Shown here: piece after piece, positions 2,837-26,726 of the stretch | Layout of the letters: every line of letters begins with the position of its first letter | Position numbering within the stretch: the first letter of the stretch is position 1 | NCBI GenBank assembly: GCA_964514965.1 | Contig: CAZETV010000001.1 | Location: forward strand, 180,001 to 212,000 | Length of the DNA stretch: 32,000 bases | DNA from: Candidatus Hadarchaeota archaeon | GTDB taxonomy: Archaea > Hadarchaeota > Hadarchaeia > Hadarchaeales > Hadarchaeaceae | Reading direction: 5' to 3' | The notes under the pieces: model-generated | Databases searched by the model: none | What the model was told of the DNA's origin: nothing | The model's input: only the letters and a program-made list of their open reading frames with translations | Made by a program: the position numbers and the translations under genes

Positions 2837-2855
2837 TTGTCTTACTGCATAATTA

Positions 2856-4393
2856 ACCTCAATACTACACTAGTCCGATTCAAACTTGTGTGCATCAGCT
2901 ATCATCTCAGCCAAGTACGAATTTCAATACTACACTAGTCCGATTCAAACGATATTCTCCCCTGTTGACAATCTATATATCACAGATTTCAATACTACAC
3001 TAGTCCGATTCAAACAAACGGAGCTTGGTCGGGCGCACCTATGAAAAAAAGATTTCAATACTACACTAGTCCGATTCAAACGAGGAATTCCTGTGACCGC
3101 ACTCAGGGAAGACAGTAATTTCAATACTACACTAGTCCGATTCAAACCACTTCCGTTCTGACCGCGTACTTGGCTGCAGCTCTATTTCAATACTACACTA
3201 GTCCGATTCAAACTCGGGCTTGGTCGCCTTGGGCTTCGCCTCGACCTTATTTCAATACTACACTAGTCCGATTCAAACCCCTCTCAGGGATTCAGACATC
3301 GTAATCCATAATTTCAATACTACACTAGTCCGATTCAAACGAGAACGACACTGCTTTCAGGGTGTCATTTACAACATTTCAATACTACACTAGTCCGATT
3401 CAAACTTACGGTTTAAAGAAGTCAACTACCACCCAATAAATATTTCAATACTACACTAGTCCGATTCAAACGCTCTTCCTCGCGACACCCGCGCTCGCAG
3501 TATGCCATTTCAATACTACACTAGTCCGATTCAAACGCTCTTCCTCGCGACACCCGCGCTCGTATTATGCCATTTCAATACTACACTAGTCCGATTCAAA
3601 CGACCTGTATGCAAAAGGTCTTCTCACGTATGACCAGATTTCAATACTACACTAGTCCGATTCAAACGCTATTGCGTACAGACCGTACAGTCGAGTTGAT
3701 GTGATTTCAATACTACACTAGTCCGATTCAAACGGGGCCACGTCGTTTTACGTAACGGCGTCGTCCTTCATTTCAATACTACACTAGTCCGATTCAAACG
3801 CTCTCTCTCTCATGTCATATCTATATATGACGTGTATTTCAATACTACACTAGTCCGATTCAAACCCGAGAACGGCCGGGCCGGGGCCGGCGCACGCCTT
3901 TATTTCAATACTACACTAGTCCGATTCAAACGCCGCCGTAGCCCTGCTGTTTCATGCGCAACCTGAATTTCAATACTACACTAGTCCGATTCAAACGTGA
4001 ACGCGTGGGACACTCGGGACAGGATAGTGACGATTTCAATACTACACTAGTCCGATTCAAACAACTTTACTTGCCCTCGACGTACACGGCCTTCATCAAT
4101 TTCAATACTACACTAGTCCGATTCAAACCCGAGGCTCAGGTGGTTCACGATGTCGCGCTTCTCCATTTCAATACTACACTAGTCCGATTCAAACCTTTTT
4201 ATCCCTCATGCGCCTCGCTTCGCTTTTTATTATTTCAATACTACACTAGTCCGATTCAAACCGTTTAATATTATTGTTCTTGAGCCTCCAAGTCCTCATT
4301 TCAATACTACACTAGTCCGATTCAAACGCATCTTGGACTCGTTGTCGGGGTCTGGAAACACCAATTTCAATACTACACTAGTCCGATTCAAAC
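2856..4393 (-). CRISPR. CRISPR array with 24 repeats of 30 nt and 23 spacers (32-37 nt)
   Basis: The + strand repeat is atttcaatactacactagtccgattcaaac. Repeat starts are 2856, 2921, 2986, 3052, 3118, 3184, 3249, 3311, 3376, 3442, 3507, 3572, 3638, 3704, 3770, 3836, 3902, 3967, 4033, 4099, 4165, 4232, 4298 and 4364. Only the repeat at 2856 is degenerate (acctcaat...), which marks the trailer end, so the leader is at 4394-4488 next to cas2. In the transcribed (minus) sense the repeat is GTTTGAATCGGACTAGTGTAGTATTGAAAT, ending in the ATTGAAAT-type 8-nt handle common in type I-B/I-A repeats. Track ORFs 2945..3145 and 3954..4268 are artefacts of repeat periodicity. Confidence 0.98.
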
Positions 4394-4488
4394 CTCCCGC
4401 TCATTTTTGGTTCTGAGCCTCGTTTGTAAAAGCTTTTCGCCACCAGAAAAGTCAACCCTCGATCGTGCAGTCCATTTATAAACGCTGA
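4394..4488 (-). promoter_or_regulatory. Putative CRISPR leader with a TATA-box-like element (tttataaa, 4475-4482)
   Basis: This is a 95-nt non-coding gap between the cas2 stop and the newest repeat. The palindromic TTTATAAA lies about 80 nt upstream of the first repeat in the minus sense. Confidence 0.4.
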
Positions 4489-4764
4489 CTAAATTATGCT
4501 CGAAACTTCGGCCTTCTCGATGCCCAAGACTTCTTTCTTCATCCATTTTTGGCTAGAGACAATGAAGAAGATTATCGAGTCCTCATCCTCTTTTATTCGC
4601 TTCCGCAGCCCAACCTTGACTTGTTCTAGCCCACCCTCGCTCAGTTCGCCTTCAAATGCCGAATTCTGGATCCAGTTGAGGTGTTGCCGGAGGAAATGCC
4701 TCACTCCGTCTATCCGCTCTACAGCGACATCATAAACAACTACAACGTAAATCTTCACCACCAA
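4489..4764 (-). CDS. cas2: CRISPR-associated endoribonuclease Cas2
   Basis: About 90 aa: ..KIYVVVVYDV......LRQHLNWIQNSAFEGEL..., the typical Cas2 ferredoxin-fold pattern. The start is ambiguous (TTG 4764, GTG 4761 or GTG 4758) and overlaps the cas1 stop. Confidence 0.85.
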   Translation of the reverse strand: MVVKIYVVVVYDVAVERIDGVRHFLRQHLNWIQNSAFEGELSEGGLEQVKVGLRKRIKEDEDSIIFFIVSSQKWMKKEVLGIEKAEVSSII

Positions 4765-5765
4765 GCCTTAAATCCCTCGTATTTTTGGCCGCCAATCAGA
4801 TGCTTTATGAGTTTGTAACATTCAAGCCTTACCAATCTCTGGTATGAAACTTTTCTCTTGAGCGCTGGATGGTTGATAGTCTTCCTGAGTTTATCGTCGT
4901 ACTCCGAGATGAAGGTTCGCCTGCCCTTTTCGTTCAGGTAACAAAAATTGAGTTCATCCTGAAAATGCTTCTCGCCGACCATACGGTTGTTCACCAACTT
5001 GAAAATCGTGCGATCAACGAGAATCGGCTTGAAGATCTCGCTCAGATCTAGGCTCAGGGAAAACCTCCGCTCGCCCGGCTCGTGCAGATAGCTTATCGTG
5101 GGGTTGAGCTGGGTGTGGTAGATCTCGGACAGGGTGCTCGTGTAGAGGAGGGAATTGCCGAAAGAAATCAGGCAGTTTATCATGTTGTCGGGCGGCCTCC
5201 GCACGCGCCGCTCGAACTCGAACCCCTCCCGCAAGATTGTGTTGAAGCTCTGGTAATAGTGGTCCCTGATCCTCCCTTCCACGCCCATGAGCTCTTGCAC
5301 ATCTTTTGTACCGTCGATCTGAGTTCTCTCCTGTTCTATCGCTTCCATCATTCCGCCCACGTCCTTGCCGTGCTTCTTGTAATGGGCGAGGTTCTTGAGG
5401 ATGTTGTGGCTCGCGGACCTGATTATTTCCTTGGCGATTTCGAGCCTCCTTTCTTTGCCCAAATAATTTTCGACCTGTTTAACCACCAAAAGACCAGACA
5501 CCAGATACTCGCGCGGATAGTAGCTCCCCGAATAGAACCCGTAGTAATTGAAAAAGTGCATCGGGATGCGGTTCTGGGCGAGGAAGACCATGAGCTTCGA
5601 GTTCACGTCCAGTTCCCCGAGTGCATATATCGCCTCGACGTTCGCCACGGGCATCGGTATTTTCTCCTGCCCTGCCTCCAAGTACAGGGTGTTTTCCTTC
5701 CGCCTCAGCCTCCCGCTTTTCAGGATGTAGTAGTTGCGCTTCACCTCAACACCAACACAACTCAT
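4755..5765 (-). CDS. cas1: CRISPR-associated integrase Cas1
   Basis: 336 aa. Motifs are NTLYLE..., MGVEGRIRDHYY, SYLHEPGERRFSLSLDLSEIFKPILVDR (the conserved E/H/D acidic-site context). It overlaps the cas4 3' end by 20 nt. Confidence 0.92.
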   Translation of the reverse strand: MSCVGVEVKRNYYILKSGRLRRKENTLYLEAGQEKIPMPVANVEAIYALGELDVNSKLMVFLAQNRIPMHFFNYYGFYSGSYYPREYLVSGLLVVKQVENYLGKERRLEIAKEIIRSASHNILKNLAHYKKHGKDVGGMMEAIEQERTQIDGTKDVQELMGVEGRIRDHYYQSFNTILREGFEFERRVRRPPDNMINCLISFGNSLLYTSTLSEIYHTQLNPTISYLHEPGERRFSLSLDLSEIFKPILVDRTIFKLVNNRMVGEKHFQDELNFCYLNEKGRRTFISEYDDKLRKTINHPALKRKVSYQRLVRLECYKLIKHLIGGQKYEGFKAWW

Positions 5766-6261
5766 AATAGCTGCACTTTTTGCAATAAGACTTCTTCCCC
5801 ACTGCTGGCGGTTCCGGGCTGGAGAGCACTTGCTTTACCTCCTCCAGAGTTTCTTCGACCTCCCTTTCTCCCTCCTCAGTCAGCTCGACCTCCTTTTTTC
5901 GCCTGAGGCGTGGATAATCGATTACCCCCTTTGCGGCGACTCCCCTCCGCTTCAGCCAGTAGAGGTAGTAGAGCATTTGGCCGATGTGGGCCGCCTCTAT
6001 CTTTCGGGAGCGCTTGATGTCGTGGACCTCGTTTCCGTGCTGGAGGAAGTCTATCTTGATTGGCCCGAGGTCTATCTCCTTTGTCTTACGGGGGTATGCC
6101 GTCTCATGCAACAAACTGCCCAGCATCACCCGGTCCGAGGAGTGCTCCATCCCTAGGGAGTGCGAGAAGAGCCAGAGCTTGCGCTTGCAGACGAAGTAGT
6201 AGTTGACCTGGGTGCCAGTGTAGGTGAGTTCTGGGGAAGGGATTTTCTTCATGGATTTCAC
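5746..6261 (-). CDS. cas4: Cas4 (RecB-like PD-(D/E)xK exonuclease with a 4-Cys cluster)
   Basis: It has an N-terminal Cys (YYFVCKRKLW) and C-terminal CKKCSYYELCWC, with DIKRSRK and QMLYY motifs. The GTG at 6261 overlaps the upstream ATPase stop (GTGA). An alternative ATG start is at 6252. Confidence 0.85.
   Translation of the reverse strand: MKSMKKIPSPELTYTGTQVNYYFVCKRKLWLFSHSLGMEHSSDRVMLGSLLHETAYPRKTKEIDLGPIKIDFLQHGNEVHDIKRSRKIEAAHIGQMLYYLYWLKRRGVAAKGVIDYPRLRRKKEVELTEEGEREVEETLEEVKQVLSSPEPPAVGKKSYCKKCSYYELCWC
6167..6216. repeat. 50-nt segment of the intact cas4 5' region, duplicated at 7782-7831 (47/50 identical)
   Basis: aagagccagagcttgCgcttgcagacgaagtagtagttgacCtgGgtgcc compared with aagagccagagcttgTgcttgcagacgaagtagtagttgacTtgAgtgcc, aligned by eye. 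Confidence 0.9.
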
Positions 6262-7703
6262 GCTTTAGGCGAAGTTGAGCTGAGGATTTTCTCCAAATCC
6301 CTCAAATCGAACAGGAAGTAGCCTTCATCCCTCATTTTCTCCTTCCCATCGATTTTTCTCGCCATCAGCCCGTAGAACTCCTTCTTTCTTTTGATGAACC
6401 ATTGAACGTACCCCGCTTTCCGCTTGAGTTCATCTAAAATATTTTTTGATTCTTTCAAACTCAAATCTCGCCATTTCGTCTCAACGAACAAAATTTTCTT
6501 TTCCTCCTCGTTTAAAGCCACCACGTCGATGTCGTACACATTTTTTCCCTTTTCCGCTGCCGGTATCTTGCCCCATTGCTTCCCGAATTTTGTAAATCGG
6601 AACGGCAGCTCGGCCACCATCTTTTGAAGGAGGAATTCTCTGCACAGCTTTTCAAAACGCGCGCCGATGAATGAATTTAACTGATCCTTGACGGTTCCCT
6701 CGAAGCTCGGATCCCTTCGTTCGTAGAGGGAATAATTTTTGTAAAAGAATCTGAACCAAAAATGCAAAAGCGGATGGTTTATGAAGATGAGTCCTTTTTT
6801 CTTTCCTCTTATCAGGGGCCTGTCGAGCCTCAGGATTTCAAAATAGTTTAAAAGTTCGTCCATTTGCCTGGTTATCGAGGTCTTCTCGGCCCTCAGGTAA
6901 CTGGCTATATCGGAAAAGGAATTGTTGCCGCTCGCGACCGCTTCCAAGATTGAGTAGTACAGCCCGGACCTCCTGCCGAACTCTTGGGAGAGGATCACCT
7001 GGACCTCATCCTCCAAGACGGCATCCTTTTGGAAGAAGAAAACACGCAGGATTTCTTCCATGCCTTTCCCCTGCAACCCGTTATCCTCCATGGCGACGTA
7101 GTACCTCGGGAAACCACCGAATATGGAATAAAGAGTCACTATCTCATCCATGTTTTTGAATTTCAGTTCTCTGCACATCTCAGCGACGCTTGGGAACTCC
7201 ATTGGCTTCAGGTCTATTTTGCGCTTGACCCTGCCGTAGAGAGGTTCCTTTCGGCCCTGGAAAATCTTTTTCATCAAGCCGACGGTGGAGCCAGTCAGGA
7301 TCATCATTAACGGCTTATCCTCGTTCAGGTCGAAGTTCTTCTGGAGGGTGCCAAAAACGGATTTGTCCACGAAGGCGAAATTTTGGAACTCGTCAAACAC
7401 GACGATTCCCCGGTACCTTTTCACCAAGGTTTCAAAGAACGACTCCCAGGAATTCACAACCTCGAGCTCACTTATGATTTTCCTCTGCCTCAGGAGCCTC
7501 GAAAACTCTAGGAGAAGAGCTTCGCTCGACTTGTTCCTGTTCACGAAGAAGTACAGCCCCCTGTCTTTCATGAATTCCAGCGCCAACCTTGTCTTTCCAA
7601 CCCTTCTGGCGCCGTATATAGCCGTGGGCCAAAATTTCTGCTTTGAGAGCCCCTCGATTTCCGAGAGGGTCTTGAGTTCGGCCGCCCTATTAATAAATCT
7701 CAT
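6258..7703 (-). CDS. P-loop ATPase with wHTH and a C-terminal PD-(D/E)xK-like domain (archaeal ATPase / DUF234-type architecture, COG1672-like)
   Basis: Walker A is IYGARRVGKTRLA and Walker B is GIVVFDEFQNF. There is a central wHTH-like segment (YYSILEAVASGNNSFSDIASYLRAEKTSITRQMDEL). The C-terminal motif is VYDIDVVAL...ILFVETKWRD (D...ExK). The likely start is the ATG at 7703 (MRFINRAAELKTL); the track start GTG 7727 lies inside the operator-like palindromes. Confidence 0.75.
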   Translation of the reverse strand: MRFINRAAELKTLSEIEGLSKQKFWPTAIYGARRVGKTRLALEFMKDRGLYFFVNRNKSSEALLLEFSRLLRQRKIISELEVVNSWESFFETLVKRYRGIVVFDEFQNFAFVDKSVFGTLQKNFDLNEDKPLMMILTGSTVGLMKKIFQGRKEPLYGRVKRKIDLKPMEFPSVAEMCRELKFKNMDEIVTLYSIFGGFPRYYVAMEDNGLQGKGMEEILRVFFFQKDAVLEDEVQVILSQEFGRRSGLYYSILEAVASGNNSFSDIASYLRAEKTSITRQMDELLNYFEILRLDRPLIRGKKKGLIFINHPLLHFWFRFFYKNYSLYERRDPSFEGTVKDQLNSFIGARFEKLCREFLLQKMVAELPFRFTKFGKQWGKIPAAEKGKNVYDIDVVALNEEEKKILFVETKWRDLSLKESKNILDELKRKAGYVQWFIKRKKEFYGLMARKIDGKEKMRDEGYFLFDLRDLEKILSSTSPKA

Positions 7704-7705
7704 GT

Positions 7706-7736
7706 ATTCACCTACTGAATAATTCACTTACTGAAT
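7706..7736. promoter_or_regulatory. Two tandem 15-bp palindromes (ATTCA-N5-TGAAT) between a TATA-like element and the ATPase start codon
   Basis: The palindromes are attcacctactgaat (7706-7720) and attcacttactgaat (7722-7736), offset by 16 bp. atatatttaaat follows directly (7736-7747; TTTAAATATAT in the minus sense). Confidence 0.5.
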
Positions 7737-7781: not shown

Positions 7782-7870
7782 AAGAGCCAGAGCTTGTGCT
7801 TGCAGACGAAGTAGTAGTTGACTTGAGTGCCCGCAAAAGTTAATCTTTCAGATAACGCCGTAAGATTCAA
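7782..7870 (-). pseudogene. cas4 5' remnant (first ~29 codons) fused to unrelated sequence, immediately after cas3
   Basis: Minus-strand translation from the TTG at 7870 (TTGA overlap with the cas3 stop) gives NLTALSERLTFAGTQVNYYFVCKHKLWLL, then unrelated IFGASSTSRRKHLNIFSK*. Intact Cas4 reads KKIPSPELTYTGTQVNYYFVCKRKLWLF. The first codons are diverged and AT-richer, and the next 50 nt are 94% identical to 6167-6216. Confidence 0.8.
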
Positions 7871-10593
7871 ATTACATTTGATTGGATTTCGTCGCCTTCT
7901 ATGTTTATCTCTTTTATTTTATTAATTCCGTACTTTTCGATGTTCTTCAAATCAATTCCATCAATTTTTAAAACAACAAACCCCTTGAAGTCTTTACGTT
8001 CTGTTAACATCCTATGTTTTTCATAAGAGAATGTTGGTAAATTGAACGAATGCAAATAAAGGATTTTCAATAATTCCCACTTATTCACTTTATTTTCTAA
8101 ATTATTATCGCCAACTTTTTCTTTCACTTTATTAATAAGAGAATCGCCATCCTTACTTTCCCAAGGTAGTTTCCAGTTATTTTTATCGTTTATAACTTCA
8201 CCAAAAGCCCTTTCTATCTCATTTTCTGATTTAGACATAATATCTGGGATAACTACCTGAAGTCCGGCGATAGTTCTAAAAATTTTTTGAGCCTCACTTC
8301 TTTTTTCAGCAGCGAAATATTTTAACCATTCTAAATTTTTCTCTATTTCTTCCACATAAATTTCTTTAAGAGATTTTCCATTTATTTTCTCTTCAAATGT
8401 CTTTTCTATCATCTCTCGCTCTTTTTCATAATGCAATTCTACACTTTCGTTGCGTTTTAATATTTCGAGGCTTTTTTCAATAACTCTCGTGTCGTATACG
8501 GCCTTTGTTCCTTTATCAGTTCCCGTAAATATAATGACGTTCGGCGCGGCGTCTTTATAATCTCCCTCTTTGTCTCTGTTTCTATAAATCCTCCCCCATC
8601 TCTGGATTTGACTATCAATCGGAGATGCCTCTGTGATTAGAATGTCAAAATCCACATCAACGGATGCTTCTACAATCTGAGTTGAAACTAGAACCAGTCT
8701 ATCGCTTTCGGTTATGAGCTTTCCATTCTCTCTTTTATTTTTTAAAGTGCATAATTTTTCTTTTACGTCTTTTATTGTCTTGTTTTTTCTTTTTTCAATT
8801 AATCTTGAATGAAGTAGGTGGAGATTACCTTTATTAACACTCAAATTTTGTGAGTCACTTTCTATACGCTTGAACAGTTCAATGGCCTTTCCCACGTTGT
8901 TGACAATTATTAGAACATTCTTGTCTCTTCCCTCATTCAAAATTTTATGTATCTCTTTGAAAGAATCTTCGTTTATTTTCAACTCAAAATTTCCATTCTC
9001 TTTTGATTGCTCATAAGAAAATAAAGTGCCATCGTTCAATCTAATTTTATGTCTCTTGAAATTGTAATTCTTTATCCTATTTCTTAAGTTTATCCATTTT
9101 TCATTTTGTAAATCTATAACACTATCTTCCCCGAAATTGCGTTTTTCAAAAAAGGGTTTAAAGTAAGGGGGGAATGTTGCGGTTATGACAAGGATGTTTC
9201 CATTGAGTGATTTTATTATTTCTAAAGTTTTGATAATGATGGCCGCCATTTCAGGATTGTAGGCTTGTATTTCGTCTATGACTATAGATGAAACTGGATA
9301 AATAGAAATCACTTTATCGGAACCGTAATATTTGAGAGAGGTAAGGAAAATTTGATCAGGTGTTGATAAAAGTATAGGGTAAGAAAAGAGTTTTGAAGAA
9401 TTTAACTTGCTTTCTACACTTAGCTCTTCGCCTTCTTTCTCTTCTTTTAAAAATTCCATAAAAGCTGTTGAATGTAAAATCCCAACGTCTTCACCTCTAC
9501 CGCCAAAATAAGGCAATTTCTCATCTGTCGCAAATCTTACAAACAGGTCATTTAGTGCAACTCTCAACGGCAAAGTGTATAACAGTTTCTTTCCATTGTC
9601 TTTTGCCCACATTAACGCAAATTCTGTTTTACCGGAGCCTGTCGGAGCCACTAAAACAATATTTTGTCTATTGAGATTTTTCAGTACATCTTTTTGCCAG
9701 AGGTTAAATTTTGCGGATTGGAATTTGATTTTGTTGATTATATTTTCTTCTAGCTTATCGAATATTTCAGAAACGGTTTTATTGGTTTCTATGCGAACTT
9801 TGCCACTGGCAGAATAATCGCATCTTCTCAGAGTACCGAGAAAAACAAGAAATTCGTGATCTGGTTTATCATTGTCTATTTCGTGGAATTTTATCAACTG
9901 TGAAACATTGTAACCTTTGCTAATTTGCTGACTGAGACTATCTAATCTGTTCATGTCAACATTATTTTCTAGTTTATTTAGGATGTCTAAAACAAAATTG
10001 CTTTTCTTTATTTCATTATCGCTTTTTAAACAAAGAATCAGATTACTAAGCAGAGATTTAATTGCATCTTTTTTACTCAGCAAAAATTCAGTATATTTTT
10101 CTATGTCCGGGTATACATCAAGAATATTTCTGAAATTTGGAATCTCGTTGACATAAAAGCTGTTGTGGTGATGTAATAAAATCGCTGTTCTGACTTTAGC
10201 ATCCCAATCGCTATTTCTCAACATTAGCTGGGAGTAAACTATTGAAAGTGCTTCATGATCATTGACATTTACTTTCCATTTTTGTCCATCTGTATCAAAA
10301 AATTTTTTTATTTGTTCCCATTCATTTTTGTATGTATTCTTTTTTTCATCGTCGCAGAAGACTTTTTTCTGAAAACTATAATCTATCTTGCCCATATCGT
10401 GTAGACTCATAGCAATAGCCAAATTTTTAAAAAACTCATCGTCAAATTTAAAGGAAATTTTCTCTCGGTTCTTATTTACAAACTCCTGAAACTGAATAGC
10501 TCTCAATAAAACTTCCTTTAAATGATCTTTTAGTAAGAAATTGTTGCCTTCTTTTGATTTAGCCCTCAGGCAATCAAGTATTTTCTCTGTCAT
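7867..10593 (-). CDS. cas3: Cas3, HD nuclease fused to an SF2 helicase
   Basis: 908 aa. HD motifs are LKDHL, SLHDMGKID, AILLHHHN and RRCDYSAS. Helicase motifs are VLVAPTGSGKTEFAL (I), IVIDEIQAY (II), VITATFP (III) and VSTQIVEASVDVDFD...QRWGRIYR (V/VI). The gene is strongly AT-rich. Confidence 0.92.
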   Translation of the reverse strand: MTEKILDCLRAKSKEGNNFLLKDHLKEVLLRAIQFQEFVNKNREKISFKFDDEFFKNLAIAMSLHDMGKIDYSFQKKVFCDDEKKNTYKNEWEQIKKFFDTDGQKWKVNVNDHEALSIVYSQLMLRNSDWDAKVRTAILLHHHNSFYVNEIPNFRNILDVYPDIEKYTEFLLSKKDAIKSLLSNLILCLKSDNEIKKSNFVLDILNKLENNVDMNRLDSLSQQISKGYNVSQLIKFHEIDNDKPDHEFLVFLGTLRRCDYSASGKVRIETNKTVSEIFDKLEENIINKIKFQSAKFNLWQKDVLKNLNRQNIVLVAPTGSGKTEFALMWAKDNGKKLLYTLPLRVALNDLFVRFATDEKLPYFGGRGEDVGILHSTAFMEFLKEEKEGEELSVESKLNSSKLFSYPILLSTPDQIFLTSLKYYGSDKVISIYPVSSIVIDEIQAYNPEMAAIIIKTLEIIKSLNGNILVITATFPPYFKPFFEKRNFGEDSVIDLQNEKWINLRNRIKNYNFKRHKIRLNDGTLFSYEQSKENGNFELKINEDSFKEIHKILNEGRDKNVLIIVNNVGKAIELFKRIESDSQNLSVNKGNLHLLHSRLIEKRKNKTIKDVKEKLCTLKNKRENGKLITESDRLVLVSTQIVEASVDVDFDILITEASPIDSQIQRWGRIYRNRDKEGDYKDAAPNVIIFTGTDKGTKAVYDTRVIEKSLEILKRNESVELHYEKEREMIEKTFEEKINGKSLKEIYVEEIEKNLEWLKYFAAEKRSEAQKIFRTIAGLQVVIPDIMSKSENEIERAFGEVINDKNNWKLPWESKDGDSLINKVKEKVGDNNLENKVNKWELLKILYLHSFNLPTFSYEKHRMLTERKDFKGFVVLKIDGIDLKNIEKYGINKIKEINIEGDEIQSNVI

Positions 10594-11406
10594 CTAAAGC
10601 CATCCATTATCAAGTATTTTAAACTCTGCACCATTGACGTTATAAACTTCCATTCTTGTTTCACTATTCAAAATAATACTATAATCATTTCCTGTATAAA
10701 TTACAGTTCCAAATTTTGGTTTTCTTTCTGTTTTTTTAGTTATTTCAGATTTTGATTTAACCGGAGCGTCGCCATTCATAAATCTTACCTCTACTGGTAT
10801 GGAATAAACCGGGTATTTCTGTTTTTTAAGTCGAAACTCTTTTTCCTTAATGTAAGTGGGATATTTTATCTTAACGTCTGTAATATTTTCAACGGTATCT
10901 GCCGCATTTACTTCTTGCACATGTTCTATGAAAACAACATCTTCACTTCTTCCTAACGACAATACTTTCTTCGGATGTTCTAAAGATTCTTTTATTTTGC
11001 CAATTAACTTTTCCTCCCCTCTAATAAAAAGAAATATACGACCGTTGAAAAGTTCCTGTTGATGCACAGGTGATCTTTGAGAGGTTATACCTTGCCCATA
11101 TAATGGCAAATTTTGATTTACGAGAACAAGTTTCCCATCCTTTTGTTGTAACTCTGTTTTCCCCTTTATTAAATTTTGATAGTTCCAAAAAGCATTTTCA
11201 AATCCGCCATGCATGCTAACTTTTAATTTCCACCAATTATCAATACCAAATCCGTTGCCATACCAATCGTCACATGCATTTTGGAGCATTCCAATTACAG
11301 TAGATTTTGGTGGTAATGGATAAGTTTGTGCGTAATAGAAAGTAAAGGGGTTTCGATATTGAGCAAATGGCTGAAATAATTCAATAAAAAGTATTTTTTC
11401 TACCAT
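10594..11406 (-). CDS. cas5: Cas5 (Cas5t/Cas5h-like)
   Basis: The N-terminus FIELFQPFAQYRNPFTFYYAQTYPLPPKSTVIGMLQNA matches the Cas5 signature (FR.P....TYPLPPPST.IG). The gene abuts the cas3 start. Confidence 0.8.
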   Translation of the reverse strand: MVEKILFIELFQPFAQYRNPFTFYYAQTYPLPPKSTVIGMLQNACDDWYGNGFGIDNWWKLKVSMHGGFENAFWNYQNLIKGKTELQQKDGKLVLVNQNLPLYGQGITSQRSPVHQQELFNGRIFLFIRGEEKLIGKIKESLEHPKKVLSLGRSEDVVFIEHVQEVNAADTVENITDVKIKYPTYIKEKEFRLKKQKYPVYSIPVEVRFMNGDAPVKSKSEITKKTERKPKFGTVIYTGNDYSIILNSETRMEVYNVNGAEFKILDNGWL

Positions 11407-11438
11407 TCTGCCACCATAAAGATGATACTGATGATTAT

Positions 11439-12437
11439 TTAACCCAAAAATTTCTCAACTTTCTCAATAACATTTTTTTCATTTAATTCTTTTGTATCTA
11501 TTTTTGAATAAACGCTACACAACTCTTTTCTATTAAATACACTAACATTTTCACCATTCTCTCCTAACGCTATGTTAAAGGAAGGTATTATGTTATCTTC
11601 GACTTCATTCTCTATAATTTCTAAATCGCCGTCTTTTTTGTACTTTCTTTTTATCTTGTATTGTGTCTTTCTTTCTAATCTTATTTTATTCAAATAGGAT
11701 TCGTATTTTCCATTATTATATAGACCTAAAACAATTAACCATGGCGATAAATCTTCTCTTCGACCTTTAATGTCTCTCTTAAGATTTAGAATTGTCTCGA
11801 TAAATTTTATAATCCTTTCCTTAATAACTTCGTCGCCTACCTTGATATCCCCAATTTCTTCTTTACCATGCTCATCTTTTAAAAAATTACCAACTCTATT
11901 AACATCGATTGTAATATTATAAATATAGAAATCTGGTTTCTCCTCTATTGTGACAGGATTACTGCCTTCTCCACCAGCCCTCTTCATCATGTCCAAATTG
12001 GCCATTGTATGGGTATCCAAATTGTAAGGTGTTAGTGAGATAGCATGACTTATCTTTACGGGGGAAACTCTTGTTAGTGCTGCCTGTCCTTCTTTTGTTA
12101 TCATAAAACCAAATAAATCAAATTCAGGAAAACCAGCAAAAACGTTTTGGTTAATTTCGTTTAGTCCAGCTACGCCACCTTCTCTAACTACAAGTTCCTC
12201 AGGTCCTGCTAGTTTCCATGTCTCTGGGAAAAGGTGATTTGCCCAGTGCAAAATACTATATCTGAGCGCATATCTGCTCACTAATGCGTATTGTCTGCCA
12301 TCCCACTTCGTTATCTTCTTGAGCGGTTGATAGTTAGTTCCGCCACCCCAATCGTAATTCAGAGAACTTCCATAGAAAACGATGTCTAGAACTATAAACT
12401 TTTTATCACTTTTTTTATTTTCATTTGTTTTATTCAT
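11439..12437 (-). CDS. cas7: Cas7 (Csa2/Cst2/DevR-type backbone subunit)
   Basis: GSSLNYDWGGGTNYQPLKKI....YALVSRYALRYSILH is the typical Cas7 I-A/I-B N-terminal pattern. The gene overlaps the upstream small ORF by 8 nt. Confidence 0.8.
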   Translation of the reverse strand: MNKTNENKKSDKKFIVLDIVFYGSSLNYDWGGGTNYQPLKKITKWDGRQYALVSRYALRYSILHWANHLFPETWKLAGPEELVVREGGVAGLNEINQNVFAGFPEFDLFGFMITKEGQAALTRVSPVKISHAISLTPYNLDTHTMANLDMMKRAGGEGSNPVTIEEKPDFYIYNITIDVNRVGNFLKDEHGKEEIGDIKVGDEVIKERIIKFIETILNLKRDIKGRREDLSPWLIVLGLYNNGKYESYLNKIRLERKTQYKIKRKYKKDGDLEIIENEVEDNIIPSFNIALGENGENVSVFNRKELCSVYSKIDTKELNEKNVIEKVEKFLG

Positions 12438-12795
12438 TTTCCTTACCTTTGACCTTGTTTTGATATGTACTCATGATACCAATAATTATTGAATAAGCAA
12501 GATTTATAAACGCTTCATCTGGCAAAATATCATAGTTTTTTTCTAGCTCATCCCACAATTTTTTGAAATTTTCCTTTGGTTTATTAATAGACCTCAAAAG
12601 CAGGTAGAAGAATCTATTTTGATTTTTATTTTTTACGGACTCCAGTAAATCAAAAACTAGTCTTTGTTTGTAATTATCAGATTCGCTTATAAAAGAATCT
12701 TTAGCAGCATTTTTAAATTCCCACAACTTTAATTCTTTAGACTTTTCTCCAATTTTTAGTTCCCACACCGCTTGTTTTATCTCATCATCCATCAT
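12430..12795 (-). CDS. 121-aa predicted all-helical protein between cas8 and cas7; candidate standalone small subunit (Cas11/Csa5-like). Function unproven.
   Basis: It is tightly coupled on both sides (ATGA overlap with the cas8 stop, 8-nt overlap with the cas7 start) and has the same AT-rich composition as the interference module. Its size and position match csa5 in csa5-cas7-cas5-cas3 arrangements. I recognise no sequence motif. Confidence 0.45.
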   Translation of the reverse strand: MMDDEIKQAVWELKIGEKSKELKLWEFKNAAKDSFISESDNYKQRLVFDLLESVKNKNQNRFFYLLLRSINKPKENFKKLWDELEKNYDILPDEAFINLAYSIIIGIMSTYQNKVKGKENE

Positions 12796-14546
12796 CTATA
12801 CACCAGACCTGCTGTTAAGCATAATGCATACCTTGGCCAGCTTAATTCATTATCTACTATTTTATTAAACACCCAATTTAAAAAGCCTTTGTTGATAATT
12901 TCTTTGCGGTTGTTTAGAGATTTAAGTAAAACAATAAGAAAACCAGCTTTATCATTTGCGTATAAAGAATCAAGAAGAAGATAAGCAATTTTCTCTCTCA
13001 TTTTCAAATCTGGGATTAGTCTTTTTGTCTCTTGGGTTGAGTAATAAAAAGTACTTGGGAATGTCCTTTTGACTTGAGTTACCATTTCTCTATAATTCTC
13101 AGAGAAAAAGATTTGAGAAAATAACAGACTACTATTTTTTTCCTTAAACTCCAAAATTACGGCCTCAATCAAAAGAGCATAAAATACGGAGTAATTTGGG
13201 TACCTACTCTCGTCGATAGAAACTTTTACGTGTTGCAAAACCAATGGGTAAAGAGGTTTTCCTTTTATGAATTCTTTTAGAAGCCATACATATTTATCCC
13301 CCTTAAGATATTTAGGTCCAACTTGAATTCTTTTGTTCATCGCATCTCTAATCCTGTCGTCTAAAACAATAGAAGCTCGAAGTTTCGGAATGCCTATAAA
13401 TTCTACATCTTTTAACTTTAGATTTTCTATTCCACCGAATTCTATTATATACATGTTCTCTAAAGAAAAATCTACCTTTTTCTCAATAATAGTGTCGATT
13501 ATAGCAGTCCAAGTTATTTTGAACATATCTGTCCTTCTCCCTTTCCTTTCTTTATATAGAGCGAATTTTTTGTTAATTTCGTATGAACTTTCTAATAAGT
13601 TGGTATAGAACATCAAGTTTCTCCCTTCGATAAACTGGAAAGAGTTTCCAAATGATAAAAGCAATAAGTATAATGGTTGTTTAACATTTAACCACTCCTC
13701 AACCATAATTACTTTCGGGAGATCGGTATAACCGATGTTTGGAAATTCACCAGGCGAATACAAAAAAGGGTTTATCGTGGAATCTGCTCGAATTTCATAA
13801 GTCAAACCATCTTTCTTTTTCTTTTCGCTTATTTTAGAAGCAAATTTACGTAAATTTGAATAATCTTCTTTTAGCAAATACCAAAGGTAAACGAATGAAG
13901 TATACAGATCTTTTTTAGGATTATAGATGAAAAAATTCCTATGGTCTTTAGGTAATTTCAGATCACAGCTATGAATAAGCGACTTTATATCTTCTTTTTT
14001 TTCTTCAACGTTTACTAGAATGCCAAAAATTTTGTTTTCTATATTTTGTTTAAACTCATCTAATTCTTTTATTAGATTTTTCTCTTTGTTAGAAATCTCA
14101 TTATTGCATTGTATGATTTCATTTTTGAATTGAGTGATTTTTTTATTTTCCTTTTCAATTTTCTTATCTTGAGATTTGAGTTTAGATGGCTTTTCATTAG
14201 ATTTAATTTTCTTACTCTCGTTAATTAAATCTCTCAATTTTTTCTCAGATTCTCTTAATTTGACTCGTAAGCCTTTTTTTGGGTCTGTAATTTTTTTTCT
14301 TATGCCGCTAATTTCACTTCTAACTGTTCTAATTCTAGAATGGTAGAATAAGTACGCAAACGGAAAATATCCATAATAAATCAATTCCTTATTTTCCCTA
14401 ATCCTCTTTCGCAGCTCTTCCAAATCCCATCCATAGACTTCTTCCATCAAATTTACAAATCCGAGAATTCCTGCATCTATAAACCAATTACCTGTGAATT
14501 GTAGTGTATTATGACTTGATTCAACAATTTTTGTTCCCATATTCAT
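12792..14546 (-). CDS. cas8: Cas8 large subunit (Cas8b/Cst1-like) with a Lys/Glu/Asn-rich coiled-coil-like insert
   Basis: It occupies the first position of the cas8-cas7-cas5-cas3 operon. The N-terminal FTGNWFIDAGILGFVNL resembles the conserved N-terminal motif of Cas8b-like proteins. The likely start is the ATG at 14546 (GGTGA 4 nt upstream); the track TTG start at 14570 lies inside the cas6 remnant. Confidence 0.7.
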   Translation of the reverse strand: MNMGTKIVESSHNTLQFTGNWFIDAGILGFVNLMEEVYGWDLEELRKRIRENKELIYYGYFPFAYLFYHSRIRTVRSEISGIRKKITDPKKGLRVKLRESEKKLRDLINESKKIKSNEKPSKLKSQDKKIEKENKKITQFKNEIIQCNNEISNKEKNLIKELDEFKQNIENKIFGILVNVEEKKEDIKSLIHSCDLKLPKDHRNFFIYNPKKDLYTSFVYLWYLLKEDYSNLRKFASKISEKKKKDGLTYEIRADSTINPFLYSPGEFPNIGYTDLPKVIMVEEWLNVKQPLYLLLLSFGNSFQFIEGRNLMFYTNLLESSYEINKKFALYKERKGRRTDMFKITWTAIIDTIIEKKVDFSLENMYIIEFGGIENLKLKDVEFIGIPKLRASIVLDDRIRDAMNKRIQVGPKYLKGDKYVWLLKEFIKGKPLYPLVLQHVKVSIDESRYPNYSVFYALLIEAVILEFKEKNSSLLFSQIFFSENYREMVTQVKRTFPSTFYYSTQETKRLIPDLKMREKIAYLLLDSLYANDKAGFLIVLLKSLNNRKEIINKGFLNWVFNKIVDNELSWPRYALCLTAGLVYR

Positions 14547-14550
14547 GTTC

Positions 14551-14704
14551 TCACCCCACCATGAAACCAAACCCCAGCGAGTTCTCCTCCCTGAACCCCG
14601 CGTCCAACCCGAACTGAATCACATCTTGCTTTTTCCCCGTCCAGATAATAGGAGAACCCCCAGATGGAACCAAAAATCTCGCCATTCATTCCGAACCCAA
14701 CTCT
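14551..14704 (-). pseudogene. cas6 3'-terminal remnant (about 51 codons, frameshifted) abutting the cas8 start
   Basis: Minus-strand translation gives RVGFGMNGEIFGSIWGFSYYLDGEKARCD, then a +1 frameshift, then IQFGLDAGFREENSLGFGFMVG*. Intact Cas6 reads HVVFGGKEVKVLGSLWRFMFSYLDEMRREILQFGLDAGFGELNSLGFGFMNVVR*. Between ctggac and cagttc there are 22 nt here and 21 nt in the intact gene. About 80% nt identity over the last 20 codons (by eye). An in-frame stop lies just upstream at 14705-14707. Confidence 0.85.
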
Positions 14705-15246
14705 TCAACTCTCCTTTTCAGCCCGGCCAGCTCATCCTCCACTCCCATCTCCCTGCAGATCTCTTCCAGATACTCTAGATTCAGCTTCCCGAGCTGCCTT
14801 ACGAATATCCCCTCCGCATCTTTTAAATCTTGCTCGCTCCCGAACACCAGCTTGTTGGCGATGATGTCCTCGGGAGAAGCGATGTAAATATCGGTCCCCT
14901 TGTATTTGAACGATGTCCTCCTCTCGAAAGTGCGCTTGTCCATTTCGTTGCAAATTCCTTTAATATCCAACCTGAACATCGACCTCTTGTCCTGAACGAT
15001 GCAGTGGAACCGTTCTTTCAACGCCCTCCTCAGGCCCTCAGCGCTTGCAAAAAAATCATTCCGACTCAAGAACTCGGCCAGCTTCGGCGTGTCCTCCTCT
15101 TTGATCTGCAGAATCAGGTCTATGTCCATCGTGGTCCTCGAAAGACCGTGGAAGTTCACCACCAAGCCACCTACCATGACGTAACCTATGCGTGCCCTGC
15201 CAAGGAACCCGCACACGAGCGACAATATCTCATCTATTTCCCGCAC
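14686..15246 (-). CDS. Minimal nucleotidyltransferase-fold protein (Pol-beta superfamily, toxin-like)
   Basis: 186 aa. IGYVMVGGLVVNFHGLSRTTMDIDLIL fits the GG..(x)..HG..R.T.DIDL NTase active-site pattern. It has a GTG start that overlaps the upstream 65-aa ORF by 17 nt. Its last 7 codons overlap the cas6 remnant in another frame. Confidence 0.65.
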   Translation of the reverse strand: MREIDEILSLVCGFLGRARIGYVMVGGLVVNFHGLSRTTMDIDLILQIKEEDTPKLAEFLSRNDFFASAEGLRRALKERFHCIVQDKRSMFRLDIKGICNEMDKRTFERRTSFKYKGTDIYIASPEDIIANKLVFGSEQDLKDAEGIFVRQLGKLNLEYLEEICREMGVEDELAGLKRRVEELGSE

Positions 15247-15427
15247 TTTTACTCGCCTCGTGGATTTCTACCGCAAACTTGATCAGGTCCAATCCCTGCT
15301 CGAAGGTTTCCTCCCCTGAGAAACGCCGGGCGCGAACGGCATCCCGCCTCAGCTCCCTGGCCCGGACCTCCTTCACCCTCCTCCTGAACTCCTCGAGGTC
15401 CCTACGTTTGAACGCGCTGGCCTTCAT
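15230..15427 (-). CDS. 65-aa Arg/Glu-rich helical protein, putative partner (antitoxin-like) of the NTase
   Basis: It has an ATG start and overlaps the NTase start. The C-terminal half SGEETFEQGLDLIKFAVEIHE resembles the small partners often found upstream of minimal NTases (from memory). No search was run. Confidence 0.5.
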   Translation of the reverse strand: MKASAFKRRDLEEFRRRVKEVRARELRRDAVRARRFSGEETFEQGLDLIKFAVEIHEASKSAGNR

Positions 15428-15478
15428 GTTCCGCCTCCGGAGGCGCCATTAGGGACATTTCCACCACGTGAATATTGT

Positions 15479-15495
15479 CTCACCACGTTCATAAA
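15479..15495. repeat. 17-bp perfect direct repeat (ctcaccacgttcataaa), copy 1; identical to the last codons of intact cas6
   Basis: Exact match to 16870-16886. In the minus sense it encodes FMNVVR. Confidence 0.85.
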
Positions 15496-15527
15496 AAAAA
15501 ACCACGGTCAACTTTTGGAAAGGAAAC

Positions 15528-16736
15528 TCAGATCACGGCCAAAAATAGGGGTAGGGTGTCCTCATCCAGTACCTCCACGCTTTTGGGGTACTTCCTGTGC
15601 GGTTTCCCCGCCTTCACCTCTATTTTCAAATCGGCCGCCATGCAATCTATCTCATAGGAATTTCTGAAGTAGAAAACTTCCCCAAATTTTCTGGACAAAT
15701 GTGACTGGACCACCCACTCATACAGAGCGCCCTTCAGAAACTCCTGCCCGCTCCAGAGGGACAAACTCCTAGCCATGAAGGGGTCGATGAAAAATACTTT
15801 CTTCTCCTTTCGGTGCAGGATCTTTTCCCCCTCCTTACATCTCGCCAAATCCAGGATGAGCAGACTTTTCAGCAGCTCCAGATATTCGGCCACGGTTTTG
15901 TAGGAATACCCGGAGGTATCCTTGGATATCGTGGTATAGCCGAGCGGGGAAGGGGCCTTTTTGAATATCGAGGAAAGCACCTCCCTCGATAGGGAAACGC
16001 TCCTGCCCAACCTCAGGACCTCCCCCTCGAACGCCCTTATGAAATCCTCATCCGCCCTTGGGTCCCCGTTTATCGAGAGCGGAAATCCACCTTTCTTCAG
16101 ATAATCCCCAAACGCTCGCTTTATCTCCTCTTCCTGGACGGCGGCTTTTTTCGCGTCCTTGTTCGCGTCCCCGGTGGTCTTTATCTTTACACCGTGGACC
16201 TCCAAGAATTCCCTGAAACTCAAGGGGTAAACAGTTATCTCCCTCCCCATTCCCCTCCGCCCGGGAAAAAACTCCACATCCCCCCTCAGTTTTAGGGAGG
16301 AGGAACCTGTTATGGTCAAGACATCGTCCTTGAACGCGCCCAGGTCCACGTATCCTTTTACGACCCTCCACCAGCCTTTTACCCCTGTGACCTCGTCCAA
16401 AAAAATAAAGCTAGAACCATGGCCGAGAGACCTTCTGAATTCCAGATAAGCATCCATAACTTTTCTCAGCGAGTATGCGTCCGGGGAGAGGTCACAGTTG
16501 AAGTAAAATATCCTCTCCGCCTCTACCTTTTTCAGCAGATCGTCGACCATGAGCTTTAATCCAGTTGTTTTGCCTATCTGCCTCGGCCCGATGACGAAGT
16601 TCAATGAAAAGGACTTCAGCGAGATGTCTTTTATCCAGTTCGGCACCCATTTAATCCTCATCCCTTCCCATTTCGCAAAGTGATAATCTTTTTCCCCCTT
16701 CCACCAAGGGTTATGCCTTATCACGAGGTTTCTCAT
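15528..16736 (-). CDS. P-loop ATPase with a C-terminal PD-(D/E)xK-like domain (AAA_14 + DUF4143-type architecture, COG1373-like)
   Basis: The N-terminal ...RHNPWWKGE is typical of this family. Walker A is VIGPRQIGKTTGL and Walker B is SFIFLDEVTG. The C-terminal motif is YEIDCMAADLKIEVKAGK (D...ExK). The gene has its own AT-rich upstream region with TATA-like ttataag/ctataaa elements (16737-16790). Confidence 0.75.
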   Translation of the reverse strand: MRNLVIRHNPWWKGEKDYHFAKWEGMRIKWVPNWIKDISLKSFSLNFVIGPRQIGKTTGLKLMVDDLLKKVEAERIFYFNCDLSPDAYSLRKVMDAYLEFRRSLGHGSSFIFLDEVTGVKGWWRVVKGYVDLGAFKDDVLTITGSSSLKLRGDVEFFPGRRGMGREITVYPLSFREFLEVHGVKIKTTGDANKDAKKAAVQEEEIKRAFGDYLKKGGFPLSINGDPRADEDFIRAFEGEVLRLGRSVSLSREVLSSIFKKAPSPLGYTTISKDTSGYSYKTVAEYLELLKSLLILDLARCKEGEKILHRKEKKVFFIDPFMARSLSLWSGQEFLKGALYEWVVQSHLSRKFGEVFYFRNSYEIDCMAADLKIEVKAGKPHRKYPKSVEVLDEDTLPLFLAVI

Positions 16737-16865
16737 GATAGAATTTATAGTTCTAACTACTTATAAACATTTAGAAACCTAACTTCCATTATTGAACGGC
16801 TCCGTCCTGAATCCCAATTCTCCCTCTTAACTTCATCTCTCTGCCACGTTGATATTTTTGAACCG

Positions 16866-17642
16866 TCACCTCACCACGTTCATAAATCCAAACCCGAGCG
16901 AGTTCAGCTCTCCGAACCCGGCGTCCAGTCCGAACTGCAATATTTCCCTCCGCATTTCGTCCAGATAACTGAACATGAAACGCCAAAGGGAGCCCAGAAC
17001 CTTCACCTCCTTTCCCCCGAACACAACGTGGGCGCAGGCCGTGTTCATAAACTCGAACTGCTCGAATATCGGGGACTCCTCAATCGCCTTGCCGTAAAAC
17101 TCGCGATATTTCTTGAACAGATTTTCCTCCAGCTGCCTGACGAACGGCTCGAACGGCCATTGCTCCCTCCAGTAGATGTAATCGTAATCCTTGGGCGGGA
17201 CGATGCCGTACTTCTCAAATTTCTCCTTGGGTATGCGGAGCACGATGGGCGTGCCGGTGATCAGCCTGCAAGACCTGCCGATTCTGGGCTCGAGCGGCTT
17301 CACCGACTCAACGCCGAACGACATGTCCCCGATGTTAACGGGCACCCGCTCTTCCATTATGCGCTCCAATTTGTCGTTCAGGAGTTTTATGATCCCGACC
17401 TCCGGGGAGGATATCAGAAATTGCCTGAGCTCACCCTTCTCCATGCTCTCGGACGGATTCTCTTTCGTGCCCTTTGGTGGAAAGATGTTCGAGAAGCAGA
17501 AGAACTTGTACCCCCGCCTGTCGTGAAGTTTGACATACGGCGTTTCATTGAGCAGGCCATAGATGAAACCCTGGAGCTTGCGGTGATATTTCAATTCATA
17601 CGCTTGGTTCTTCAACGACTTCAATTTGATAAGGAGCCTCAT
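16866..17642 (-). CDS. cas6: Cas6 crRNA-processing endoribonuclease
   Basis: 258 aa. The N-terminus is MRLLIKLKS...YELKYHRKLQGFIYGLL. The C-terminal glycine-rich loop is GLDAGFGELNSLGFGFMNV, the Cas6 hallmark. G+C is like cas1/cas4, not like the AT-rich interference genes. Confidence 0.88.
   Translation of the reverse strand: MRLLIKLKSLKNQAYELKYHRKLQGFIYGLLNETPYVKLHDRRGYKFFCFSNIFPPKGTKENPSESMEKGELRQFLISSPEVGIIKLLNDKLERIMEERVPVNIGDMSFGVESVKPLEPRIGRSCRLITGTPIVLRIPKEKFEKYGIVPPKDYDYIYWREQWPFEPFVRQLEENLFKKYREFYGKAIEESPIFEQFEFMNTACAHVVFGGKEVKVLGSLWRFMFSYLDEMRREILQFGLDAGFGELNSLGFGFMNVVR
16870..16886. repeat. 17-bp perfect direct repeat, copy 2 (inside the cas6 3' end)
   Basis: ctcaccacgttcataaa, identical to 15479-15495. 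Confidence 0.85.
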
Positions 17643-17660: not shown

Positions 17661-18824
17661 CTAAAGTCTGCGAATCTCCGCTACCCGCTCCAAAGACTCC
17701 TCTTCCTTAGGAGCCAGCGGTTTTTCCTGCGTCCATACCGGTAGGGGTCTCCTCTGCATCTTGATCCGCTGGAACTCTCTCCCGGCCTTGAGCTTCTTCT
17801 CCTTCGAGGTCTTCCTGATCGCATCGATGCCGGGCTTGACTCCCTCGAGATCGAGCACGTCAAGTTCCTCAAATCTCCGGGCAATATCGAAGGCGTCGGA
17901 GCCAGTTTGCGTTCGGACGAGCACCGTGGACCTGCCGAGGGGTGACCCTGCCGCACCCACCGAGATGTCCGCGAGCTCAGCCGCGAAGTCCATACACACT
18001 TTGCACGGTTGACAAACGTACCGCTCCACCGATTCTAAAGCAAGCTCGCGCCTTGGTTTTTGCTTGAGGTAGATGATGAATCGCCCCCGTTTAATGTCGA
18101 ACTTCACGACCTCGGTGAGGTGAGTGCGAAGCTGATTCTGGATGACGCCCCTGAAAAATTTCTCGTATTCAAAAGCGTGAGTACAGAACAATCCTATGCG
18201 GAGCGCGATCGCCCCACCCAAACGGCGGTTGGTCAGCTCCGAGAGCTGCATCCGGCGCGAGGCGATAATCTGGCAAGGTGTACCGACAATTGCCACCCGC
18301 GAGGAGTAGTGCAGGTCAACGGCGTCTCGCAACCCCAAGAAGAGCGGCCCCATTGCATACTTCGAACCTGCGCACTCCATGAGTTCTTTGCGGCCCTTCG
18401 CAAACCTAGGGGTGGGCTGCCACGGCAGAGCCCCCACACCCATAACGATCGCGCCATCGATGAACCCGTTTTCGATGAGAGACGCCAGAAGCGCGGTGAC
18501 AGCCCCGCCATCTTGGGCGCGCGTCTTGATGTCGGGAGACTTCGCACAGACCGAAAGCGCTCGTTGATAGACACCGAACACCTCCTCGTCCGAAGCCTTT
18601 CTCCCAAAAATTTTTTCCTCGAGCCGCCTAAAATCGATCACCTGCGGACACTCATCGTAGCATATGCCGCAGTTTACGCAAGCCTTCTTTAAAACTGGGG
18701 TCACACCTTCCATCGCGAGGCACTCGAACGGGCAGGAGGCGACACATGCCCCGCAGGCGAGACAGTAACCGGGAGTCGTCACCTCCTCTATGAGATCATT
18801 GAATACTTTAGCCGTTCCCACCAC
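17661..18824 (-). CDS. Coenzyme F420 hydrogenase/dehydrogenase beta-subunit family protein (FrhB/FpoF-like) with an N-terminal 2x[4Fe-4S] ferredoxin domain
   Basis: The two Cys clusters are CLACGACVASCP and CVNCGICYDECP. They are followed by an FrhB-like body (AQDGGAVTALL...VGTPCQ). The stop is only 18 nt upstream of the cas6 ATG. Confidence 0.7.
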   Translation of the reverse strand: MVGTAKVFNDLIEEVTTPGYCLACGACVASCPFECLAMEGVTPVLKKACVNCGICYDECPQVIDFRRLEEKIFGRKASDEEVFGVYQRALSVCAKSPDIKTRAQDGGAVTALLASLIENGFIDGAIVMGVGALPWQPTPRFAKGRKELMECAGSKYAMGPLFLGLRDAVDLHYSSRVAIVGTPCQIIASRRMQLSELTNRRLGGAIALRIGLFCTHAFEYEKFFRGVIQNQLRTHLTEVVKFDIKRGRFIIYLKQKPRRELALESVERYVCQPCKVCMDFAAELADISVGAAGSPLGRSTVLVRTQTGSDAFDIARRFEELDVLDLEGVKPGIDAIRKTSKEKKLKAGREFQRIKMQRRPLPVWTQEKPLAPKEEESLERVAEIRRL

Positions 18825-26331: not shown

Positions 26332-26410
26332 CACTTAAAATGAAATCGGAGGTTTGCTCCTTTATAAGTAACCTTAATTCAAAGATTTCGGCAAGTGAAC
26401 TGGATTAAAA

Positions 26411-26722
26411 GGCGACGAGCGCGCCCGAAGTTGACGCCTTCCCCACATGCCGATTACTGGCCCCAAACTCCATCTCGTGGTCCGCAAGCGTCGCACGTCC
26501 TATCTACGGCTGCTGACTTCCGCCCCTGACCGGATTCGACAGGTGGAGACAGTTTACCTTAGTGCTACCACCAAGGCCCTGCCGCCGCCGACCCTGCGGG
26601 ACGAGATATCTTCGCCGGAAACCAGGTCGAACATATGGTTCCAACGCCGTCCTCGAGCTTCGGCCCACCATAAACCCCATTTGTGGTAGAGGCAAGGGGT
26701 GGCTGCCCGCCTAGCTCGCCGC
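26411..26722 (-). ncRNA. Signal recognition particle RNA (archaeal 7S/SRP RNA); ends approximate
   Basis: The minus strand contains the helix-8 motif CCGGTCAGGGGCGGAAGTCAGCAGCCGTAG (compare the conserved ...CAGG.CCGGAAGG.AGCA.C.GUAG). The 5' GGCGAGC pairs with the 3' GCTCGTC, and CCCC pairs with GGGG. Length is about 310 nt. The ORFs called across it on both strands are spurious. Confidence 0.8.
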
Positions 26723-26726
26723 AATA

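Follow-up and report, generated by a model that had tools for sequence, protein, structure and literature searches.

Why does a broken piece of cas6 stand directly in front of cas8 in a locus that has an intact cas6 further upstream? The question is raised by a 32,000-nt stretch of Hadarchaeota DNA (the window) belonging to a genome, G000, of 1.28 Mb in 3 contigs (48% GC; metagenome-type assembly). The features of its CRISPR-Cas locus are listed below in the direction of the minus strand.

17661-18824, minus: FrhB-like gene, preceding the intact cas6.
16866-17642, minus: intact cas6, 258 aa (TIGR01877, 101 bits; PF01881).
15528-16736, minus: AAA_14/DUF4143 ATPase gene, 402 aa (profile matches), between 17-nt direct repeats.
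15479-15503, minus: mini-copy of the sequence around the cas6 stop, TTTATGAACGTGGTGAG and, downstream of it, a stretch of partial similarity.
15230-15427, minus: 65-aa ORF, putative partner (antitoxin) of the nucleotidyltransferase and its neighbour in relatives too.
14686-15246, minus: DUF6036/AbiEii-like nucleotidyltransferase (NTase) gene, 186 aa, its final codons and stop supplied by the cas6 remnant.
14551-14704, minus: cas6 3' remnant, last ~51 codons (alignment, tblastn).
7867-14546, minus: AT-rich interference block, 29-34% GC, cas8 through cas3.
12792-14546, minus: cst1-type cas8.
12430-12795, minus: 121-aa gene between cas8 and cas7.
11439-12437, minus: cas7.
10594-11406, minus: cas5.
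7867-10593, minus: cas3.
7782-7870, minus: cas4 5' stub, 47/50 identical to the intact cas4 at 6167-6216.
6258-7727, minus: ATPase_2/DUF234 ATPase gene between the cas4 stub and the intact cas4.
4489-6261, minus: adaptation module (cas4 5746-6261, cas1 4755-5765, cas2 4489-4764).
2842-4395: CRISPR array, 24 repeats of ATTTCAATACTACACTAGTCCGATTCAAAC (plus-strand reading).

Two adjacent repeat-spacer units of the array (3442-3571) are 97% identical, indicating that a spacer was duplicated. No Cas6 match was obtained in the 13 same-genus genomes searched (G001-G013, 56-90% complete), suggesting that the whole CRISPR-Cas island may be accessory in the genus.

The first-pass annotation had read the segment in front of cas8 as a frameshifted cas6 3' end, about 80% identical in nucleotides to the intact gene. 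Aligned with the intact cas6 3' end (16866-17020), this segment reaches a local score of 66, which is about 20 SD above the shuffled controls (mean 17.6, SD 2.4, maximum 28, n=300) and thus far above chance. The measured identity is 107 of 136 aligned bases (79%), and a repeat search retrieved a gapless 57-nt core at 82% identity. When the whole genome was searched with Cas6 by tblastn, only the remnant and the intact cas6 matched. Re-reading of the minus strand agreed with the frames first proposed: the first reads ...VGFGMNGEIFGSIWGFSYYLDGEK and, after a +1 shift produced by one extra base within the A-run GGGGAAAAAG, the next reads QDVIQFGLDAGFREENSLGFGFMVG up to the stop codon. The remnant is also one codon short, with WGF-SY facing WRFMFSY in intact Cas6. 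Compared with the Cas6 family (TIGR01877/PF01881; ~250 aa, two RRM-like halves), it lacks the N-terminal ~205 codons; the C-terminal glycine-rich motif GFREENSLGFGF is still recognisable and is cut from the upstream part by the frameshift. The remnant is therefore not expected to encode a Cas6. It appears instead to provide neighbouring genes with an NTase stop codon, a Shine-Dalgarno-like GGTGA and a tight spacing before cas8. The NTase stop (14688-14686) falls within the remnant in a different frame, GGTGA stands immediately upstream of the remnant-cas8 junction, and the remnant TGA (14553-14551) is separated from the cas8 ATG (14546-14544) by the four bases GAAC, exactly the spacing first described.

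In order to evaluate which cas6 allele the remnant comes from, the read-through remnant was compared with the best 120 Cas6 homologues. All top matches fall in a clade of intact Hadarchaeota Cas6 named here EEN (for "GEENSLGFGF"; C-terminal motif GFGEENSLGFGF), the best being P0139 and P0142 (32/49 identical, score 168). A score of 133 (25/44 identical) is reached by the resident Cas6, with the motif GFGELNSLGFGF; Cas6 proteins of the same archaeal lineage score 116-152, and the Cas6 whose gene heads a related AT-rich cst1 operon (L027) scores 41. The GC content of the remnant (52%) is similar to that of the resident cas6. Together, the composition, the EEN-clade best match and the poor match to L027 indicate a different, host-type allele, which is neither a fresh duplicate nor a partner brought in with the AT-rich block. 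The initial view that another allele, and no recent duplication, was involved is thus upheld (168 versus 133). The possibility that this allele is the natural partner of the AT-rich cas8 was rejected (L027 score 41; 52% GC versus 29-34% for the block). The longest identical run between the two cas6 copies of the window is 11 bases; this makes present-day recombination between them unlikely and counts against the insertion scheme presented below. By sequence similarity, the distal part of the remnant probably descends from the tail that cas6 had before the insertion, of the EEN type. A maximum-likelihood tree of Cas6 N-terminal parts, made to test replacement of the resident tail, had low backbone support. 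Cas6 pairs were found with N-terminal parts 91-94% identical and C-terminal parts as low as 49-69%. A region-restricted protein search with the remnant read-through joined to the resident N-terminus gave 0 candidates.

The locus was then compared with those of relatives, all of them metagenome contigs or MAGs; a Cas6 match was present in 12 of 66 Hadarchaeota genomes. The key comparison is with L030, whose housekeeping genes are 78-82% identical to genes of G000 that map elsewhere in the genome. L030 has the same order, with cas6, a 402-aa DUF4143 ATPase, a 65-aa ORF, a 186-aa NTase and a 50-codon Cas6_C fragment. Collinearity with the window spans 17617-14561 and includes the same NTase|cas6' fusion; the homology ends where the remnant ends. 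Beyond that point L030 carries a Csh-type I-B module (Cas8b/Csh1, Cas7/Csh2; GC about 41%), followed by a cas4 5' stub that has a derived His codon in common with the G000 stub. Identity between the two loci is uneven: 70-85% in cas6 and about 63% in the remnant, versus 92-100% over a stretch that begins ~35 nt before the cas6 end and takes in the ATPase gene and most of the toxin-antitoxin (TA) pair formed by the small ORF and the NTase. This unevenness indicates that exchange between lineages affected the insert later than its flanks. In G000 and L030 the distal remnant parts differ in origin. The high-identity zone stops inside the NTase gene, short of the fusion point, so that a single recombination event is not enough. 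Across G000, L030, L034, L035 and L040, the segment with the ATPase and TA genes (window about 14850-16900) is 94-100% identical and housekeeping genes only 78-83%, which also points to a recent exchange of this segment.

A more heavily filled site was observed in L040. This locus is syntenic with the window (FrhB-side genes 83% and cas6 90.6% identical) and contains, in front of the ATPase cassette and behind cas6, an extra unit of 1.7 kb made up of a promoter-like stretch, a second TA pair (TA2), whose NTase is 51% identical, and a cas6 tail. L040 thus has two copies of the final ~85 nt of cas6, both aligning to window 16950-16866. The truncated tail is 57% identical to the intact tail over its proximal 65 nt and 90% over its distal 85 nt, the mosaic pattern expected from a crossover inside a duplicated tail. 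The first-pass annotation had proposed, as one of two options, that the DNA between remnant and intact cas6 was inserted; an extra cassette accompanied by a duplicated cas6 end supports this option. The uninterrupted arrangement was found in L032/L033, which have housekeeping genes in common with window 26406-31985. In these loci, which have no insert, just 34 nt separate an intact EEN-type cas6 from an I-A-like module (cas3, two unassigned genes, a Csa2-like cas7 and cas5a; GC 35-39%), behind which lie a cas4 5' stub and then an ATPase gene. The G000 remnant, together with 25 nt downstream, aligns to this cas6-interference junction. In L029, a TA pair lies directly behind an EEN-type cas6. 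Including G000, cas6 3' fragments stand beside HEPN, MNT or DUF6036 cassettes in five genomes (the others being G018, G038, G032 and G025).

The fusion of NTase and cas6 sequence recurs at a constant point. The fusion point ..TCGRAATGAATG.. is common to G000, L030, L029, L040/L034/L035, L037 and the TA1 copy of L035, that is, to at least 6 contigs besides the window. The NTase gene ends in ..TCG(G/A)AATGAATG.. in G000, L030, L029, L040/L034/L035 and L037, and its TGA overlaps an ATG with which the cas6-derived stretch begins, at about codon 205-209. The same point is used by two NTase types of 51% identity and stands before at least 4 different downstream contexts. In our opinion the best explanation, to which we give a probability of roughly 0.7, is that a second cas6 allele survives in the remnant as a dead 3' fragment, left by duplicative insertion of cassettes at the cas6 3' end.

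The constant fusion point also weighs against a second scenario, without any duplicative insertion, in which tandem CRISPR-Cas units (cas6-TA, then cas6-cas8 and so on) were present and the second cas6 lost its 5' four-fifths by a single deletion that fused it to the NTase gene. Such a deletion would have to account for one fusion point in two NTase types and at least four contexts. It is also at odds with L040 and G000, which differ by the presence or absence of a cassette with a duplicated cas6 tail, and with the mosaic identity of the loci (ATPase and TA genes 92-100%, flanks 63-85%), which shows a later exchange of the insert. Among the loci compared, none has two full cas6 genes around this TA pair. 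On the other side, in G032 a TA pair stands between a remnant, which comes first, and an intact cas6. A TA pair can therefore directly precede a full cas6; this layout fits the decay of one of two tandem cas6 genes as well. Deletion variants are common in the group (G042, L037) and the genome is small (1.28 Mb). We therefore regard the tandem-deletion course as improbable, though it is the best of the alternatives.

Several other fragments deserve mention. In G032 and G025 the remnant-TA unit adjoins pheT, between repeats of the pheT 3' end; in G032 (L019 7911-9020) three such ends lie around the unit, and in G025 (L023 6156-8629) a DUF4143 ATPase gene is also found between pheT and the cas6 remnant. 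The piece downstream of the TA pair in these two genomes had been considered as a second cas6 fragment and was rejected, the alignment showing a copy of the pheT 3' end. The interference block is missing from G042 and L037, in which the ATPase and NTase genes are decayed. In G042 (L021 1790-2540) cas6 is followed by a frameshifted MNT-type NTase gene, decayed pieces of the same DUF234 ATPase gene as in the window and then cas4-cas1-cas2, and in L037 a cas6 remnant is fused to the C-terminal part of a DUF234 protein. Several cas6 5' fragments, some with stop codons, were seen in L024 (G042:C20, 6627-7697) and L025 (G033:C6, 8024-9261), near CRISPR arrays whose repeat is that of the window.

Could the fragment have been kept for a function of its own, either as a small Cas6 C-terminal peptide or as a bridging ORF that couples translation of cas8 to that of the NTase? 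In L030 it is an open 50-codon frame that starts from an ATGA overlap with the NTase stop. In G000 the frameshifted remnant gives an ORF of 48 aa (14543-14689, minus) that overlaps the NTase stop at one end and the cas8 start at the other, in both cases through ATGA; these overlaps could couple translation, or could be due to chance, the probability of the double ATGA arrangement being ~0.1 by a rough estimate. The frame is open only in L030, however: it is shifted in G000 and in the TA2 copies of L040/L034/L035, the L037 fragment is internally deleted, and after L035 TA1 only 9 bases of the cas6-derived stretch are left before another AT-rich gene. The fragment is thus not a conserved ORF, which speaks against the possibility that it belongs to a functional frame maintained in relatives, and a retained useful function seems very unlikely. 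Chance similarity or an assembly artefact, for which only the three-contig metagenome-type assembly speaks, can be dismissed in view of the distance from the shuffled controls and of the same arrangement in independent assemblies from other samples (L030, L034, L035 and L040).

From these comparisons we infer an order of events and an enzymology for the duplicative insertion. Accessory cassettes would have entered the cas6 3' end in this Hadarchaeota lineage, first the pair of small ORF and DUF6036/AbiEii-like NTase and later the DUF4143 ATPase. Every insertion would have duplicated the cas6 tail, leaving an intact cas6 upstream of the insert, and the truncated copy, from about codon 205-209 and fused to the NTase end, would have remained beside the interference genes. 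Later, or independently, the interference module would have been replaced in situ. Insertion may have relied on a site-specific enzyme or on host recombination using a carried cas6 fragment; the latter would explain the constant fusion point, the mosaic tails and the missing integrase.

The inserted genes and their borders were examined with this scheme in mind. Direct repeats of the target are present at both ends of the inserts. A perfect 17-nt repeat (TTTATGAACGTGGTGAG, minus strand) at 15479-15495 and 16870-16886 flanks the DUF4143 ATPase gene; the second copy is the last 17 nt of the intact cas6, and the first belongs to the mini-copy between the ATPase gene and the TA pair. The TA units are bounded by cas6-tail copies of ~150 nt. 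The DUF4143 cassette was found behind three distinct cas6 tails, namely the intact ones of G000 and L030 and the remnant of L040. Pfam and NCBIfam scans of the genes in the inserted 2.2 kb gave AAA_14/DUF4143 and DUF6036/AbiEii as the only family matches; no integrase or transposase was among them, which counts against the insertion scheme. The NTase scores 23.9 bits with PF08843 (cutoff 22.5) and 30.8 with PF19502 (cutoff 23.6), and the 65-aa ORF has no family match in the same scans. The NTase gene and the adjoining small gene are a candidate AbiE-like (type IV) TA pair. NTase and ATPase queries gave no matches in viral contigs; against genome contigs, the NTase query retrieved 4 loci, 2 of them already known.

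A more general reading, which we offer as tentative and rather doubtful, is that the TA and ATPase cassettes are integrase-less mobile units, each equipped with a portable homology arm captured from a cas gene, and that their stubs define a slot for module exchange. The arm would derive from the 3' tail of cas6 or the 5' head of cas4, and entry into a cas operon would take a single host recombination event that leaves the cas gene unbroken. The duplicated stubs left over would then delimit a slot that eases wholesale exchange of interference modules.

A second scar lies at the other side of the interference genes. The cas4 stub that follows cas3 is of the host type and not of the donor type; its TTG overlaps the cas3 stop (TGA), and the intact cas4 is found 1.6 kb away, behind the DUF234 ATPase gene. 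Similar cas4 5' stubs occur in L030, L032 and L041, and the order cas4 stub-DUF234 ATPase-cas4 is repeated in L041. The cas4 5' stub is the mirror-image scar at the slot's other edge. The modules beyond the same cas6-tail boundary differ: Cst type in G000, Csh-type I-B in L030, I-A-like in L032 and another one in L035. These data suggest that the remnant marks the left edge and the cas4 stub the right edge of a slot that has seen the exchange of whole interference modules; the AT-rich Cst-type block now in place is apparently one such replacement. As expected for in situ replacement, common flanks surround unlike interference genes, and the block is compositionally foreign. The cas8-cas3 block has an overall GC content of 31% versus 48% for the genome, and GC3 values of 0.24-0.31 versus 0.59-0.76 for the flanking cas genes and cassettes. 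A search of 60 relatives for the cst1-type cas8 gave a single, distant match; the best public Cst1 match is 58% identical, and the closest cst1 loci have the canonical order cas6-cst1-small-cas7-cas5-cas3-cas4-cas1-cas2. The block extends from about the cas8 start to the cas3 stop. Entry by crossovers in donor cas6 and cas4 was considered and rejected, as it conflicts with these limits and as the donor-type cas6 and cas4 (L026-L028) are of different subtypes. The remnant had also been said to mark the original cas6-cas8 junction. It does mark the original boundary between cas6 and the interference slot, but not an original junction with this cas8, given its GC content (52% versus 29-34%), the L027 score of 41 and the Csh module found downstream in L030.

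Integrative elements that insert at gene 3' ends (att sites in tRNA or protein genes) bring a replacement copy of that end. The target gene thus survives whole at one border of the element, and part of its 3' end is repeated at the other; several insertions in tandem produce a row of incomplete copies. Such series are seen here in L040 (cas6) and G032 (three pheT 3' ends). Unlike these elements, the Hadarchaeota inserts have no integrase in or near them, their repeats match at only 75-90% and range in length from 17 to about 150 nt, and the inserts consist of single genes or TA pairs and not of whole elements.

In situ replacement of effector modules and toxin-antitoxin genes within cas loci are both already known. 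The former has been documented in type I-A, I-B and I-D loci in which, according to the parts of that study drawn on here, adaptation genes and flanks are constant, interference genes vary and boundaries are sharp (Hudaiberdiev et al. 2017, BMC Evol Biol, PMC5704561). G000, L030, L032 and L035, with different modules behind one cas6-tail boundary, resemble these loci as they appear there. They differ in that the Hadarchaeota boundaries are marked by truncated duplicates (cas6 3' fragment, cas4 5' stub) and in the accessory cassettes between each duplicate and the intact gene, which we did not find described in those parts. As to the latter, TA pairs are described as often accompanying archaeal CRISPR loci (PMC3973734), and CreTA lies in the cas6-cas8 intergenic region of Haloarcula hispanica (PMC8501985). 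The window is similar to CreTA in having an addiction-type module at the cas6-cas8 junction of a type I-B operon. However, CreTA is an RNA pair controlled by Cascade via the repeat-like creA, whereas the pair in the window is protein-coding (small ORF and NTase) and the window has no repeat-like sequence outside the array: no sequence there lies within 10 mismatches of the 30-nt repeat.

A lone pseudogene fragment would be a modest finding; its worth is in the comparative series. Gene trees provide good documentation of module shuffling in CRISPR-Cas systems, but scars that show the process at base level are scarce. This locus and its relatives form a series of filled and empty sites, with cassettes between truncated and intact cas6 or cas4 and with one slot holding four different interference modules. 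If duplicated gene ends act as landing pads, this would explain both the addiction modules at the cas6-cas8 junction and the clean swaps of effector modules.
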